A stretch of 64,000 nucleotides of DNA. It comes from an uncultured Gammaproteobacteria bacterium. Lineage in GTDB: Bacteria > Pseudomonadota > Gammaproteobacteria > Steroidobacterales > BM003. The translations under genes were made by a program, and so were the position numbers. The stretch is taken from positions 324,715-388,714 of the forward strand of contig CAWAOM010000006.1 of assembly GCA_963783695.1 (NCBI GenBank), read 5' to 3'. The notes beneath the pieces were generated by a model, which did no database searches, was not told where the DNA came from, and was given only the letters and a program-made list of their open reading frames with translations. Below, piece after piece: positions 22,665-62,451 of the stretch (position 1 is its first letter; each line of letters opens with the position of its first letter).

Positions 22665-22852
22665 CGCCCCTCTGTCCTGAAACCTGAGAGATTGGATGCT
22701 GCGTCAGCGCCATCCGGCCCCTTCGGTGGGCTGCTCATGCAGCCGCTCTCCAGAGCCAACCAGCCTCTCCCGGTCCGTTTGCCTGAGCGTTTCCGGGCGG
22801 GTTGCGCCTTCGGCGCCCCGAATTTCTGTTCCGGGGTCTCTCCCAGGGGAGG
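22665..22852 (-). promoter_or_regulatory. Tandem glycine riboswitch (two aptamers) in the gcvT leader
   Basis: The minus strand reads CTGGGAGAGACCCCGG...CGGGGCGCCGAAGGCGCAA...CTCAGGCAAACGGACCGGGAG, then CTCTGGAGAGCGGCTG...CAGCCCACCGAAGGGGCC...CTCAGGTTTCAGGACAGAGGGG. Both halves carry the GGAGAG / CACCGAAGGGGC / CTCAGG..GGAC consensus blocks. Confidence 0.88.
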
Positions 22853-22871
22853 CTATGGGTTGGAGCCCGAG

Positions 22872-32319: not shown

Positions 32320-32508
32320 GGCGCTTCCTGCGGTGTTCGGCAGCAGATCGGGATTCCTTCGAGCCTAATCTGTTACATCGGGGCAATACGGCTGAGTGCG
32401 TCGTTGAGCAAACCCGCTTCTGGCGGGAAGCCTGAGACCAACCGCCGTGCCCCACCTATCGCTCTGGTTCGAGAGCGATGATCTGCACCGGCACAGGCGG
32501 GAAGCGCC
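32320..32508 (+). ncRNA. ssrS: 6S RNA
   Basis: Sits in the conserved zapA-ssrS-ygfA slot. The 5' GGCGCTTCC pairs with the 3' GGAAGCGCC to close a roughly 189-nt rod-like fold. TATACT at 32296-32301 could be the -10 element. Ends are approximate. Confidence 0.72.
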
Positions 32509-33833: not shown

Positions 33834-34418
33834 ATGGCTACGAGAAAGAAAGCCGTTTCGAAGAAGAAAGCTTCGACGAAACGGAAGACAACTGCGAAGA
33901 AGCGCGCGACCAAGAAAAAAGTTGCAACGAAGAAGAGAGCCGTTGCACGTAAGGGCGCCAAGAAAAGAGTAGTGAAGAAAAAAACGGCTGCGGCCAAGCG
34001 TAAGGTGAAGAAGAAAGTTGCCAAGCGTAAGGTCAAGAAAAAAGCGGCTGCTACCAAGCGCAAGGTGAAGAAGAAAGTCGCCAAGCGTAAGGTGAAGAAG
34101 AAAGTCGCCAAGCGTAAGGTCAAGAAGAAGGCGGCTGCTACCAAGCGCAAGGTGAAGAAGAAAGTCGCCAAGCGTAAGGTCAAGAAAAAGGCGGCTGCTA
34201 CCAAGCGTAAGGTGAAGAAGAAAGTCGCCAAGCGTAAGGTCAAGAAGAAGGCTGCCGTTGCGAAACGCAAGGTGAAGAAGAAAGTCGCCAAACGTAAGGT
34301 GAAAAAGAAAGTTGCCAAGAAAGCCGTGGCTCGTAAGAAAACGACGGCCCGGAAGAAAGTAGCGAGCGCGAAGAAGCGCGCCGCAAGTAAAAAGCGAGCA
34401 GTTTCCAAGAAACGCTAA
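33834..34418 (+). CDS. Lysine-rich histone-H1-like repeat protein (probable nucleoid-associated/DNA-binding)
   Basis: 194 aa, almost entirely K/R/A/V/T. GGAG lies 8 nt before ATG 33834 and a strong terminator follows. The alternative minus-strand ORFs encode implausible F/L-rich repeats. Confidence 0.75.
33996..34316 (+). repeat. In-frame tandem coding repeats: 11 KRKVKKK modules (27-bp KRKVKKKVA and 33-bp [11 protein letters not shown] units)
   Basis: Near-identical DNA units AAGCGTAAGGTGAAGAAGAAAGTCGCC / AAGCGTAAGGTCAAGAA(A/G)AAGGCGGCTGCTACC repeated head to tail. Total 321 bp. Confidence 0.9.
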
Positions 34419-48589: not shown

Positions 48590-49963
48590 TCAGGCGGTTG
48601 CTGCCTTTTGTGCCGTCCGCGGCAGACACAACCGCACGACGAGTCCCGGATTACCGTCGCCGAACTCCAGCCGAGCACCGTGCTGCTGTGCCACGGCCGC
48701 GACCAGGCTCAACCCGAGGCCGTTGCCTTTTTCGCCGCGGGCGCTATCAACACGGTAAAAACGCCGCGTCACCTTGCTCTTATGGGCATCGCCAATCCCC
48801 GGCCCCGTGTCGCGCACTTCGACCCTGCAGTCATCGCCATCAACGGCAACCGAAAGCCTGACCAAACCGCCCGGCGGCGTGTATTTGATGCCGTTATCCA
48901 CCAAATTGACCAGCGCCTGAAACAGCAAGTCGCGATCGCCGGCAACGGTAACCGGAACCAACTCCGCCTCCAGCGCAACATCCTTTTCTTCCGCCACGGC
49001 CTGGTACATTCCAACCACATCATCGGCAACCTGGTCGACTGACACGGCGGCCGCTTTGCGCCGTCCACGCGCCTCGATGCGGGCGATCCGCAACAGGGCA
49101 TTGAAGGTCTGCAATAGCTGGTCCGACTCGGCGATGCACTCCGCAACACCGGTCGAATCGAGTTCATTACCCGTACCCGGTTGCAGCATCTCGAGACGCG
49201 TTCGCAACCGGGTCAAGGGAGTACGCAGGTCATGCGCGATGTTGTCCGTGACATGACGCACGCCCTCCATCAACTCTTCGATTCGATCGAGCATCGCATT
49301 CAGCTGTTCGCTCAGTTTGTCGAATTCGTCGCCGCTACCGCGATCCGCGATACGACGGGAGAGATCGCCATTCATGATCTCGCGGCTGGTTTCGTTGATC
49401 GCCTCGATACGGCGATTGATGCGCCGACTCATCAGCAGCCCGCCCAGCAGGCCCAGCGCTACGCTAAGAGCGAGCCCCCAAATCAGCCCGCGCCGGATCA
49501 TCGCTTCGGTACGGACCAGATCGCGGATATCGCGGCCTACCAGCAGATGCAGACCATCGCGTAACACGAACAGGCGCGCGCGTGCCGGAACCTCGCCCGC
49601 CACAGTGTCCTGGCGCGGGAAATTCAGCCAACCGTCTTTATCCGCGACCAGCGGTGGCCACTGGTCGAGATTGCCGGCCAGCGGCTTGTAATCGGATGTT
49701 GCAAAAAGATAAATAGCGGAACCATCCGGATCGGCGCGCATCCGTTCACCGATAACCTGACCGAGACCGTTCAAACCACGCCTCCGGTACTGTTCCGCCA
49801 GGCCGAGAATCTCGGCTTCGATCGTCTCGTCGGTCTGGCGCGCCATGAAACCGGCCGTCATCCAGTAGATCAGCCCCAACAGCAACACCACGGAGCTCGC
49901 AAAGAGCACCATGTACAACGCCGCGAAGCGGAATGTCGAGGTGCGCCAGATCCGTGCCGGCAT
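48590..49963 (-). CDS. Sensor histidine kinase (2 TM, HAMP, HisKA, HATPase_c)
   Basis: H-box NIAHDLRTPLT, N-box LVNLVDNGIKYT, G-boxes DTGPGI and GLGLSLV. Start at ATG 49963, or GTG 49999. Confidence 0.88.
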   Translation of the reverse strand: MPARIWRTSTFRFAALYMVLFASSVVLLLGLIYWMTAGFMARQTDETIEAEILGLAEQYRRRGLNGLGQVIGERMRADPDGSAIYLFATSDYKPLAGNLDQWPPLVADKDGWLNFPRQDTVAGEVPARARLFVLRDGLHLLVGRDIRDLVRTEAMIRRGLIWGLALSVALGLLGGLLMSRRINRRIEAINETSREIMNGDLSRRIADRGSGDEFDKLSEQLNAMLDRIEELMEGVRHVTDNIAHDLRTPLTRLRTRLEMLQPGTGNELDSTGVAECIAESDQLLQTFNALLRIARIEARGRRKAAAVSVDQVADDVVGMYQAVAEEKDVALEAELVPVTVAGDRDLLFQALVNLVDNGIKYTPPGGLVRLSVAVDGDDCRVEVRDTGPGIGDAHKSKVTRRFYRVDSARGEKGNGLGLSLVAAVAQQHGARLEFGDGNPGLVVRLCLPRTAQKAATA

Positions 49964-58857: not shown

Positions 58858-59321
58858 TGTTTAGGTGCCCCCCGGCGTCATTGCCGTCAATTCTCGCGCA
58901 GGCTCAGTCGCTAAGCTGCCGAACATTTCCTTGTAAGAAATTCACACCATCACCGCCAAAGCGCATACCGGAATAGTTGCAGTAACTAGCAGAGGAAGAG
59001 TGGCATTGGCGCTAAGCTCATGTCGTGTTGCCATCGCAGCGCAGTGTTTTTGTTTTTAGTGGCGGGAGCATAACAAAATTTTGCGATTGAATGTGACCGC
59101 AGAATGACGCCACAACGGGCGGAAAGTCGATTGCGCAGACAAGAGCCCTTATCAAAGGGCAAGTTTTCACGGCCTGCGGCGGTCCGGGAAACCGCGGCTA
59201 TTCGCCGCTTCAATATCGTCGGACACAAGGCCGTCAGCGCTGCAGCAATAGCGGCTGCTCGGCGCGCGCCGTGCGGCCTCTATTCGAACCCGAGATTCTC
59301 ATCCTGGCCCCTCGCCACTGG

Positions 59322-59358
59322 CACAAGGAAAGGGCCCCACCGGGGCCCTTTCCTTGTG
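59322..59358. other. Perfect 17-bp inverted repeat (hairpin) abutting the tRNA-Gln 3'-end duplicate
   Basis: CACAAGGAAAGGGCCCC-acc-GGGGCCCTTTCCTTGTG. Confidence 0.9.
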
Positions 59359-59377
59359 TGGCTGGGGGACCAGGATT
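59359..59377 (-). repeat. 19-nt direct duplicate of the tRNA-Gln 3' end (T-loop to CCA): candidate att-site remnant
   Basis: TGGCTGGGGGACCAGGATT at 59359-59377 is identical to 59527-59545. Identity breaks inside the T-loop. Confidence 0.85.
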
Positions 59378-59492
59378 GACTCGCGCCATCCATGGCGCTC
59401 GCCCTGCGGGCGACTGCGCCGTCCGAATCGACAATCCTGCCGATTCGTCGAACCTTTCAGGTTCGAAGATGCTGATCCCGGCCGATGAAATG

Positions 59493-59518
59493 AAAAAGGC
59501 CCCCCGAGGGGGCCTTTT
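59493..59518 (-). terminator. Terminator hairpin downstream of tRNA-Gln (bidirectional shape)
   Basis: AAAAA-GGCCCCC-cga-GGGGGCC-TTTT. On the minus strand it follows the tRNA 3' end by 9 nt. Confidence 0.7.
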
Positions 59519-59526
59519 CACTTCAA

Positions 59527-59600
59527 TGGCTGGGGGACCAGGATTCGAACCTGGGTTGACGGAGTCAGAGTCCGTAGTCCTACCGCTAGACGATCCCCCA
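59527..59600 (-). tRNA. tRNA-Gln (anticodon CUG)
   Basis: The reverse complement TGGGGGATCGTCTAGCGGTAGGACTACGGACTCTGACTCCGTCAACCCAGGTTCGAATCCTGGTCCCCCAGCCA folds as a cloverleaf: 7-bp acceptor, ACGGA/TCCGT anticodon stem, loop CTCTGAC, CCAGG-TTCGAAT-CCTGG T-arm, encoded CCA. Confidence 0.92.
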
Positions 59601-60050: not shown

Positions 60051-60479
60051 TCAGATGTCGAGCGGCTTTGGCTGCTGTGCTTCATGCGGGTGCTCGGCAC
60101 CGGCGAAAACACGCAGTTTCTTGTACATGGCCCGACCCAACGGGTTCTTCGGCATCATCCCCTTCACTGCATACTGGATCGCCTTTTCAGGCTTTTCGGC
60201 AAGCAGCTTCTCGAGATTTGTCGACTTCAAATTACCGATATAACCGGTGTGCCGGTAATACATCTTGTCCTGCAACTTACGGCCCGTAACTCTCACGTCG
60301 CCGGCGTTGACCACGATGACGTAATCGCCCGTGTCGACATGGGGCGTGTATTCAGGTTTGTGCTTGCCACGCAGGCGCCGCGCGATTTCGGTCGCCAGCC
60401 TGCCAAGCGTTTTACCCGAGGCATCGACCACATACCAGTCGCGCCTAACCGTTTCGGGCTTAGCGGAAAAAGTCTTCAT
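60051..60479 (-). CDS. rplM: 50S ribosomal protein L13
   Basis: [52 protein letters not shown]. Start at ATG 60479. Confidence 0.95.
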
Positions 60480-60759
60480 GACGGCTCCGGGCAAGACTGC
60501 CCCTAGAGAAAGACGCGGAATTTTATAGGAGCTTTGCGGCTTTTGCAAATACTGGGCCTCCCCTGTAGCAACGCCTTTAACTTATTGAAAAGTATTTAAT
60601 TTTAATCGGCGGGGAACTACGGAAGCAGCCCCTGCGACTGCCTGGGGCCGGAGTCGCCACCACGGACGGCCCACTATCACCTGAAAATACAGTTACCTGA
60701 GGGATAGGCCGCGCTCCTGATTCAGCCCACCCCGGCACCGCGTGGGCGCGCGAAGGACA

Positions 60760-60948
60760 TAAGGTTACCTCCGGCACCGTGTGCGGCATACGGCACCTGA
60801 AGGACATAAGGTTACCTCCGGCACCGTGCGCGCGTAAGGTTACCTCCGGCACCGTGTGGCGCGTAAGGTTACCTCCGGCACCGTGCGCGCGAAGGACATA
60901 AGGTTACCTCCGGCACCGTGCGCGCGTAAGGTTACCTCCGGCACCGTG
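60760..60948. repeat. Array of six identical 22-bp direct repeats TAAGGTTACCTCCGGCACCGTG in the rplM-coq7 intergenic region
   Basis: Copies start at 60760, 60807, 60835, 60864, 60899 and 60927 (spacings 47, 28, 29, 35, 28 bp). Three copies (1, 2, 5) are preceded by GAAGGACA. Degenerate half-copies lie at about 60692, 60732, 60791 and 60953. Confidence 0.9.
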
Positions 60949-61003
60949 TGCGGCACGGCACCGTGTGGGCGCGGCGCGGGGCAATCGGTACAATGCTCTA
61001 CTT

Positions 61004-61648
61004 ATGAACTCGCCTCCGAAAGATCTTCCCGACGCACTTGTGAGCCAGGTCGACCGCGTGCTCCGCTCTTTGCTGTCCGTGGAGCGCAAGACCGAGCGCG
61101 AAAATCCGGCCACCGACGAGGGCGAGGCCGAGCTTTCCGCGGATCAGCGCCGCCATGCCGCCGCGCTGATGCGGATCAATCATGCCGGCGAGGTCGCGGC
61201 GCAGGGCCTTTATCACGGCCAGTCGACCACGGCCCGGCTCGGCGCGGTCCGCGCGGCAATGGACGAGGCTGCGGAAGAGGAATTCGAGCATCTCAAGTGG
61301 TGTGAGGAACGACTCGAGGAACTCGGCAGCCGGCCGAGCCTGCTCGGGCCGTTATGGTATGCCGGCGCTTTTGCGATAGGCGCCGCCGCCGGGATTGCGG
61401 GCGACCGCTGGAGCCTCGGTTTTGTTGCCGAGACGGAACGCCAGGTCGTACGCCATCTCGATCAACATCTCGAACGTCTGCCCGAGGAAGACGAGCGCAG
61501 CCGCGCAATCCTCCGGCAAATGCGCAAGGACGAGGAAAAACACGGCGCGACCGCCAGCGCGGCCGGCGGCGCGGATTTACCTGCGCCAGTGCGCGGGCTG
61601 ATGACGTTGACATCGCGCATCATGACCCGATCGGCCTACTGGTTCTGA
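61004..61648 (+). CDS. coq7: 2-polyprenyl-3-methyl-6-methoxy-1,4-benzoquinone (demethoxyubiquinone) hydroxylase, di-iron Coq7 type
   Basis: [32 protein letters not shown] and DEEKH carboxylate-bridged di-iron motifs. ATG 61004. Confidence 0.9.
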
Positions 61649-61776
61649 CGTACTCTGGCCTGAACTGCCCTGCCACGCCGCACGCTCACTGCCCCGGCGC
61701 AACTTGCGGGCTGGCGCTTTGTGTTATAAAAGACGGCAACTCATTGACATAACGCAAACCGGCACTGGGGGGTCGC

Positions 61777-62451
61777 ATGCAAGAAGCGGTCGACGCCAAC
61801 GGGGACATCCCCGCGATTAGCAAGTTCTTAAGTTACTGCCGCATACGGACAATTTCACCGAAATCGGTGGTCATTCATGCGGGCGACCTGCCGGATACGT
61901 TGTATTACATCGTTGACGGCTCGGTTGAGGTCATGATCGAAGACGAGGACGGCAACGAGATGGTCCTGTCGTATCTCAACAAGGGTGAGTTTTTCGGCGA
62001 GATGGGGCTCTTTTACGAGCGCCCGACACGCAGCGCCTGGGTCCGCACCCGCGGCGAATGCGAAATTGCCGAAATGACCTATCCACGGTTCCGCCAGCTG
62101 TCGAACGAGAGTCCGGCGCTGATTTTCGAGCTCGCCACCCAGCTTGCAACCCGCCTCAACCGTACCAATCGCAAACTCGGCGATCTGGCGTTTGTCGACG
62201 TCACCGGCCGTATCGCGCACACGATCATGGATCTGTGCAACGAACCGGATGCGATGACTCATCCCGACGGCATGCAGATCAAGGTCAGCCGCCAGGAGCT
62301 GAGTCGGCTGGTGGGCTGCTCGCGCGAGATGGCCGGACGGGTGCTGAAAGTACTCGAGGAACAGGGGCTGCTCACCGCGAAAGGCAAGACTATTGTCGTG
62401 TTCGGTGCACGCCGAAAGCCGGGGCTGAAGCCGGCGCGTCCAACCGGATGA
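61777..62451 (+). CDS. crp: CRP/FNR-family global regulator (CRP/Vfr/Clp-like)
   Basis: cNMP-binding beta-roll (GEFFGEMGLF) and C-terminal HTH (VSRQELSRLVGCSREMAGRVLKVLEEQGL). Confidence 0.88.
   Translation: MQEAVDANGDIPAISKFLSYCRIRTISPKSVVIHAGDLPDTLYYIVDGSVEVMIEDEDGNEMVLSYLNKGEFFGEMGLFYERPTRSAWVRTRGECEIAEMTYPRFRQLSNESPALIFELATQLATRLNRTNRKLGDLAFVDVTGRIAHTIMDLCNEPDAMTHPDGMQIKVSRQELSRLVGCSREMAGRVLKVLEEQGLLTAKGKTIVVFGARRKPGLKPARPTG

Follow-up and report, generated by a model that had tools for sequence, protein, structure and literature searches.

Between the divergent rplM-rpsI operon and coq7 in the DNA of an uncultured gammaproteobacterium, a 22-bp sequence, TAAGGTTACCTCCGGCACCGTG, occurs six times without a single mismatch, and the question raised by this locus is what has made the copies identical. 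An earlier note had seen in them an iteron-like array of sites for dimeric DNA-binding proteins, and had traced their identity either to very recent expansion or to strong selection or homogenisation. The comparisons presented here lead us to a different view of what the array is: with a probability of about 0.8, it is a young, hypermutable intergenic minisatellite (VNTR), most likely neutral or nearly so, rather than a set of protein-binding sites.

Architecture of the array

An exact search recovers all six copies that had been claimed, on the plus strand at 60760, 60807, 60835, 60864, 60899 and 60927, and no further match to TAAGGTTACCTCCGGCACCGTG with up to three mismatches was found on either strand of the window, by which we mean the whole 64-kb stretch of DNA that was analysed (0 are expected from 100 shuffles). 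The six 22-nt cores lie head to tail at periods of 28-47 bp, as do the tandem copies, with a unit of ~10-300 bp, by which a minisatellite or VNTR is recognised. Tandem Repeats Finder reports an array at 60807-60952 with a period of 28 bp and 4.9 copies (score 185), and a repeat search returns six copies of 31 nt whose starts are separated by steps of 47, 28, 29, 35 and 28 bp. The layout can be parsed as AAGGACA-U1-TGCGGCATACGGCACCTGAAGGACA-U2-CGCGCG-U3-TGGCGCG-U4-CGCGCGAAGGACA-U5-CGCGCG-U6-TGCGGCA-(partial copy), with stereotyped spacers of 6, 7, 13, 6 and 25 nt. The spacers CGCGCG, TGGCGCG and CGCGCGAAGGACA are present as the earlier note had listed them, and the one it did not list, the first, is 25 nt long and is made up of the decayed tail of a unit (CGGCAC) and, after it, AAGGACA. 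The features of the array are given below; L080, L082 and L083 are independent contigs described in a later section.

60727-60752, plus strand: left boundary with a degenerate 'unit 0', CCACCCCGGCACCGCGTGGGCGCGCG (repeat search, sequence and array parse)
60733-60750, plus strand: left-hand copy of the flanking direct repeat of 18 bp, CGGCACCGCGTGGGCGCG, inside 'unit 0'
60753-60781, plus strand: unit 1, long type, AAGGACA followed by the 22-mer (60760-60781); also in L082 and partly in L083
60782-60806, plus strand: spacer 1, 25 nt, TGCGGCATACGGCACCTGAAGGACA; identical in L082
60807-60834, plus strand: unit 2 (22-mer at 60807-60828) and CGCGCG; also in L082
60835-60863, plus strand: unit 3, short type (22-mer at 60835-60856), and TGGCGCG; junction to unit 4 in the window only
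60864-60898, plus strand: unit 4 (22-mer at 60864-60885) and CGCGCGAAGGACA (22-mer matches and array parse)
60899-60926, plus strand: unit 5 (22-mer at 60899-60920) and CGCGCG; confirmed by the independent contig L080
60927-60948, plus strand: unit 6 (22-mer); also in L080
60949-60973, plus strand: right partial copy: TGCGGCA, then CGGCACCGTGTGGGCGCG, which is the right-hand member of the 18-bp direct repeat

The basic unit of the array is 35 bp long, and there are deletion variants of 28/29 bp besides. Superimposed on these is a higher-order repeat with a 92-bp period, in which 60784-60858 and 60876-60950 are 91% identical and units 5 and 6 together make up the second copy. The partial copies that had been noticed on both flanks are there as well, in the form of an 18-bp direct repeat, CGGCACCG[C/T]GTGGGCGCG, that brackets the array at 60733-60750 and 60956-60973; in the alignment described below, the final 10 nt of the right partial copy are shared with an invariant block next to coq7. 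Farther to the left, a candidate older and decayed copy at ~60678-60698 (CACCTGAAAATACAGTTACCT) was set aside, its similarity being marginal (p ~0.014 by shuffling).

Gene and promoter context

The gene coordinates agree with the setting that had been described, with rplM-rpsI on the minus strand and coq7 on the plus strand.

60051-60479, minus strand: rplM (L13), first gene of the divergent rplM-rpsI operon
60520-60548, minus strand: predicted rplM promoter, sigma-70-like, TTGCAA-17-TAAAAT (promoter scan)
60964-60994, plus strand: invariant 31-bp block TGTGGGCGCGGCGCGGGGCAATCGGTACAAT, probable coq7 core promoter (alignment)
60989-60994, plus strand: TACAAT, the putative -10 element of the coq7 promoter, at the end of the 31-bp block
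61004-61648, plus strand: coq7, 214 aa, ubiquinone biosynthesis hydroxylase, the gene directly downstream of the array (ORF list, Pfam COQ7 on orthologues, cluster names)
61777-62451: gene of a CRP/FNR-family regulator, adjoining coq7 and followed by rpe and djlA

The predicted rplM promoter is matched at the identical position in three relatives (L001, L002 and L003), a conserved AT-rich stretch extends upstream of it to ~60605 in the alignment, and some 180 bp or more separate it from the array. On the coq7 side, nearly all columns of the 31-bp block are invariant over seven sequences and the DNA upstream of the block is unalignable. The block is probably the coq7 core promoter, with TACAAT as its -10 element, a function that we assign from its conservation and position; no recognisable -35 hexamer lies 16-18 bp from TACAAT, and no other promoter-like site was found on the plus strand in the window or in three relatives. 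Between the block and the coq7 ATG (61004) lie nine non-conserved nucleotides without a Shine-Dalgarno sequence and, given the invariant block so close to the start codon, the coq7 mRNA is probably leaderless or nearly so.

The inner end of the array is ~15 bp upstream of this block, and its span corresponds to about -40 to -245 from the putative coq7 start. It lies within the divergent control region, as claimed, but does not fill it: it takes up 189 of the 524 bp of the spacer, and both the rplM promoter and the block adjacent to coq7 fall outside it. No promoter-like or terminator-like site was found within the array itself, and none of its sequence reaches 9 of 12 matches to a sigma-70-like site; the best in-unit pair, TTACCT-17-TAAGGT, scores 6/12 by eye. 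A sigma-54-like reading (GGCAC-N7-GC) was rejected, as the TTGC core is missing and there is no activator gene nearby (also by eye).

That no gene explains the array, and that open reading frames through it are encoded by the repeats, is in keeping with what we find: these frames have no Pfam match and their sequence is missing in relatives, and they were discarded as coding candidates. A structured RNA was likewise rejected. The array region has no Rfam match at E values up to 10, and compared with shuffled sequences its plus strand folds worse (z = +2.6) and its minus strand marginally better (z = -2.25).

The locus in syntenic relatives

The rplM-coq7 spacer of the window was aligned with those of six syntenic relatives (L001, L002, L003, L004, L008 and L009), in which it is ~340 bp long as against 524 bp in the window. 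Conservation is limited to two parts, ~60480-60605 (the rplM promoter, the leader and the AT-rich part) and the 60964-60994 block, and the DNA between them is fast-evolving. At the position of the array, the sister MAG L001, whose flanks are ~91% identical to those of the window, has a single unit, GAAGGACATGAGGTTACCTCCGGCACAGTGTGGGCGCGG, which runs directly into the invariant coq7 block, and all five of the other relatives have sequence unrelated to the unit. With one unit in the sister and unrelated sequence in the remaining five, the unit is a lineage-specific stretch of spacer DNA that is not conserved, and the array has arisen by its tandem amplification.

Elsewhere in the public records, Coq7 orthologues carry the label of 'Chromatiales bacterium' MAGs and the sister contig that of an 'uncultured Gammaproteobacteria bacterium'. 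Clustering of Coq7 at 90% identity or more gives 47 members, all of them from the more distant lineage, and look-ups of the exact Coq7 and RplM proteins return only short contigs that end at the array, and L082 besides. The same CRP-like protein, at 100% identity, is encoded in ten metagenome or MAG loci that share this gene order and whose rplM-coq7 spacers are ~340 bp long.

The spacers of L003 and L004 contain a small tandem duplication of their own (AACCCCACCGCGCC / AACCCCGCCGGCC, 2.1 copies, at 962-989 of L003), which lies some 30-60 bp before the invariant coq7 block, at about the same position as the array. This hints that the site upstream of the block is generally prone to slippage.

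Copy number among closely related strains

A comparison of copy number between strains, as had been proposed, is provided by L082 (GCA_942492655.1, CALOFQ010000033.1), an 89-kb contig of a short-read MAG, which has three units where the window has six. To the left of the array the identity of the two is 99.7% over 3.8 kb, to its right it is 99-100% over the first 500 bp, and L082 shares unit 1, spacer 1, unit 2 and CGCGCG with the window; it also has a spacer/junction, CGCGCGCGGGCACCG, that is not present in the window. About three substitutions in the surrounding 4.3 kb compare with several length-changing events in the array. Given the different number of units, the novel junction and the near-identical flanks, the array changes far faster than its surroundings, and a copy number that differs between close strains with conserved flanks, seen here in a short-read contig, is what is looked for in a VNTR. 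Collapse during assembly keeps some small probability as the cause of the three units, but the novel junction must exist in the reads of that sample, which argues for a real variant.

Four further contigs, 99.7-100% identical to the window, end or begin within the locus. L080 (SRR28011612) starts at 60893 and matches 60893-61857 at 100%, L083 (SRR22269842) matches the window as far as 60777, where it ends, and L084 and L085 stop at 60747 and 60750. With the short contigs of other runs stopping at the edges of the array, it is clear that assemblers are unable to traverse the locus.

It might be asked whether the array, or its copy number, is itself a misassembly of metagenomic reads, as the window evidently comes from a MAG-type contig, assemblies from short reads are interrupted here and L082, with its differing structure, is partly chimeric. 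We regard this as highly improbable, since the left flank with unit 1 (L083) and unit 5-unit 6 with the right flank (L080) are each found in an independent run, and unit 1-spacer 1-unit 2 (L082) in an independent assembly, all at 100% identity, and since assemblers are more prone to collapse repeats than to expand them. Only the window shows the junction unit 3-TGGCGCG-unit 4.

Beyond the array, L082 is strongly divergent from ~500 bp into coq7. From ~61500 (the 3' end of coq7, the CRP-like gene and rpe) its identity to the window is 50-89%, gaps are numerous and gene calls truncated, and near the position equivalent to 63330 there is again a stretch of 100% identity, which suggests either a chimera in the MAG contig or a break caused by recombination.

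Alternative explanations

Short, GC-rich, intergenic repeats invite comparison with REP/BIME, ERIC and MITE elements, which are imperfect palindromes scattered over a genome in tens to hundreds of copies, and with CRISPR arrays. That the array is a cluster of such a dispersed REP/BIME or MITE family, or an orphan CRISPR-like array, is nevertheless scarcely credible. The window contains no other copy even at low stringency: in gapped local alignment of the 35-bp unit, the best score outside the locus is 24, and a shuffled window gives 28. Among one genome each of 185,579 GTDB species, the pattern AGGTTACCTCCGGCACNGTG has 11 single matches, of which the only syntenic one is in L020 (the same contig as L001), where the sister MAG has one match in its whole assembly; there are 58 single matches in JGI metagenomes, mostly on contigs labelled human-gut metagenome, and one in IMG/VR. 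In none of the genome, metagenome and viral collections scanned does any locus hold more than one copy of AGGTTACCTCCGGCACNGTG, and the array region has no match among PLSDB plasmids. Outside the array, then, there are single chance matches and the orthologous locus, as befits a single-locus VNTR, and the check that the earlier note had proposed, of a locus-specific array against a dispersed repeat, comes out in favour of the former. The unit also differs from REP/BIME, ERIC and MITE elements in having no hairpin, which arms of 4 bp around a 1-nt centre make impossible; these are the sole palindromes, no inverted repeat flanks the array, and the plus strand, as noted above, folds worse than shuffles. 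As for CRISPR, a repeat of 22 nt and stereotyped spacers of 6-25 nt fall short of repeats of ~23-55 nt and unique spacers of ~26-72 nt. One 21-nt identity to the repeat core (AAGGTTACCTCCGGCACCGTG) was noticed at 6043-6065 of L016 (CAWCJE010000010.1, gammaproteobacterial MAG MFD09368.bin.2.99); it apparently lies in coding sequence (by eye) and has dissimilar flanks, and it was rejected as a dispersed copy in favour of a chance match among ~10 hits.

The idea that each 22-mer is the site of a dimeric protein that regulates the divergent rplM and coq7 promoters or nucleates a nucleoprotein complex, and that selection holds the copies identical, has some points in its favour. AGGT-T-ACCT is found in all six units, as had been claimed, every unit contains the 9-bp palindrome AGGTTACCT, which the window lacks elsewhere, and the gene of a CRP/FNR-family regulator adjoins coq7. 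That AGGTNACCT does not occur outside the array says little, as 64 kb should hold only 0.24 occurrences of it anyway. Such symmetry is common, however: of random 23-mers from the window, 15% hold at least one palindrome of this size (4-bp arms with a 0/1-nt centre) and 1.6% hold two, and the second palindrome, GCAC-C-GTGC, which does form in copies 2, 4 and 5 as stated, hinges on a spacer base, its C being the next base. The spacing of 47, 28, 29, 35 and 28 bp would place successive sites 120-274 degrees apart on the helix. The weightiest objection is that an operator should be kept in the control regions of relatives that retain the regulator, and the unit is absent from five of these and present once in the sixth, the five having a 100% identical CRP-like protein; maintenance of the array by selection, as the earlier note had envisaged, does not sit with its absence from otherwise syntenic relatives, the outcome by which that note would have its reading refuted, nor with three units against six in near-identical strains. 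Nor does the unit contain a site of the TGTGA-N6-TCACA type (by eye), and a candidate CRP/Clp site, an 8/10 resemblance (TGTGC-N6-GCACC, by eye) at the right edge of the array, was rejected, L001 being without it. We consider binding sites of this kind very unlikely. With a 9-bp palindrome in each unit and a promoter next to the array, the minisatellite may have a regulatory side-effect.

The likeness to the iterons of plasmids and phages (R6K, RK2, F, P1, pPS10) goes no further than direct repeats of ~17-22 bp in several copies in non-coding DNA. Iterons are regularly spaced at about two helical turns (~22 bp), they adjoin a rep initiator gene, an AT-rich unwinding element and DnaA boxes, and they are conserved within a replicon family. 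The array differs in its irregular spacing, its rplM and coq7 neighbours and its lack of conservation. There is no rep gene and no AT-rich stretch, no DnaA box lies within 11 kb (the closest DnaA-box-like match with at most one mismatch is at 48894), the local GC content is 0.65 (60.7% for the window), no switch in GC skew occurs at the locus and there is no plasmid similarity, and an origin of replication was rejected along with the iteron-like reading of the earlier note. Avoidance of a restriction site (GGTNACC) elsewhere was also considered and dismissed, since the site occurs 19 times outside the array where ~10 are expected and hence is not avoided.

Proposed origin of the array

Under the minisatellite reading, the array would descend from a single ancestral copy of ~35-37 bp, AAGGACAT(A/G)AGGTTACCTCCGGCAC(C/A)GTGTGGGCGCG, located directly upstream of the coq7 core promoter. 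This ancestral unit would have overlapped the upstream edge of the promoter block and included its first ~10 bp, which would account for the GTGTGG(G)CGCG-like tails of the units and for the 18-bp direct repeat at the ends of the array. Tandem duplication of this stretch would have been the first step. With direct copies in place, replication slippage (slipped-strand mispairing) and/or unequal RecA-dependent recombination could then have expanded and reshuffled the array, yielding long units of 35 bp, short units of 28/29 bp from which AAGGACA has been deleted, and the 92-bp block duplication. Three to five events would suffice for six cores and, if these were recent, the 22-bp cores would have had no time to acquire point mutations, such that their identity needs neither selection nor homogenisation. 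Of the two sources of identity put forward in the earlier note, it is recent expansion that the relatives and strains favour. The higher-order structure and the 18-bp terminal repeats are as expected under slippage or unequal exchange.

As the array lies upstream of about -40 of the putative coq7 promoter and ~180 bp or more from that of rplM, both conserved promoter cores are intact and only non-conserved DNA has been displaced, which makes neutrality the default assumption. The build of the array, its restriction to this locus, its absence or single unit in relatives and its differing copy number in a near-identical strain are observed, and mechanism (slippage or recombination), neutrality and promoter assignment are what we infer from them.

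The class to which the array appears to belong is well represented by the VNTR loci used in bacterial MLVA. Intergenic minisatellites of this size class are commonplace in other Gammaproteobacteria; those of Xanthomonas citri have units of 10-166 bp (22, 23 and 27 bp among them) in 2-12 strain-variable copies (PMC12654951), and the present array, with a unit of 28-35 bp around an invariant 22-bp core, fits this class in every respect tested: a handful of head-to-tail units of tens of bp, an intergenic location at a single locus, a copy number that varies among close strains with identical flanks, and absence or single-copy presence in related species. It differs from the Xanthomonas citri loci in belonging to an uncultured 'Chromatiales/Gammaproteobacteria' MAG lineage, in its compound build of long and short units with a 92-bp higher-order repeat, and in abutting a conserved promoter block. 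A striking and perfect array in a control region can in this way be explained by a few recent duplications, without binding proteins. The locus is also one to be wary of in metagenomic assemblies of this lineage, which break or collapse there, and the array could serve in typing strains of this uncultured gammaproteobacterial group.

Possible consequences for coq7

It is tempting to speculate that the minisatellite is a contingency or tuning locus, whose copy number alters the transcription of coq7 (or rplM) and so provides heritable variation among strains, be it by shifting the upstream DNA, by altered bending or by absorbing supercoils between the promoters in alternating CGTGCGCGCGTA tracts. 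The simple-sequence contingency loci of Neisseria and Haemophilus have units of 1-9 bp and usually lie in reading frames or between the -35 and -10 elements; the array resembles them in being slippage-prone, close to a promoter and of strain-variable length, and differs in its units of 28-35 bp and its position wholly upstream of the core promoter. Its inner end is close to the invariant coq7 block and near-identical strains differ in copy number, and there is a precedent in the promoter tandem repeats (PTRs) of M. tuberculosis, which are located proximally upstream of leaderless promoters and vary in copy number in a phase-variable manner (PMC12817950). The likeness to these (dop, lpdA and cysG; PMC12817950) extends to a variable repeat of tens of bp directly upstream of an apparently leaderless gene. 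The dop unit, however, holds a promoter, and further copies add promoters, whereas here the units are without promoter elements and the -10 element TACAAT lies downstream of the array, for which reason a PTR of the M. tuberculosis type was rejected; extra units would add no promoter, and the DNA that they displace is unconserved in relatives, so that no known upstream site is moved. We therefore think a tuning role for the minisatellite unlikely.

A shade less likely still is the more specific proposal that copy number (1, 3, 6 and so on) tunes a leaderless coq7, or couples coq7 to the ribosomal-protein promoter. The product of coq7 is an O2-dependent ubiquinone hydroxylase, and the routes would again be DNA geometry or absorption of supercoils by Z-DNA-prone CGTGCGCGCGTA. 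Were it true, an uncultured sediment gammaproteobacterium would have heritable, rapidly switching variation in its supply of respiratory quinone, and if copy number affected coq7 this would be a case of phase variation by promoter tandem repeats in an environmental non-pathogen; nothing here supports that, and beyond housekeeping the significance of the array is probably little.

Other repeats and RNAs in the window

Several observations were made elsewhere in the window and in the sister MAG. The 3' end of a tRNA-Gln(CTG) gene (59527-59600, minus strand) is repeated downstream of the gene, at 59359-59377 (TGGCTGGGGGACCAGGATT as read on the plus strand), 168 nt from the in-gene copy. In L001, the corresponding region (1490-1951, matching 59300-59600 of the window) consists of tandem 179-nt units, each starting with the tRNA 3' end, of which those at 1558-1736 and 1737-1915 are 100% identical and a third begins at 1916. 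The lineage has here a second locus of variable copy number. The repeats resemble the tyrT/rtT repeats of E. coli, and Rfam gives a weak, sub-threshold match to RtT (RF00391) at this point (28.5 bits against a gathering threshold of 45, E = 0.0023).

At 33975-34319 of the window lies a long compound tandem repeat whose periods are 27, 60 and 87 nt, in up to ~11 copies (consensus GCCAAGCGTAAGGTGAAGAAGAAAGTT). It is rich in AAG/AAA codons and, if coding, would specify lysine-rich repeats like those of histone H1 or AlgP. At the Rfam gathering threshold, the window also contains a 6S RNA at 32322-32507 on the plus strand (77.5 bits) and a glycine riboswitch aptamer at 22761-22855 on the minus strand (66.8 bits).
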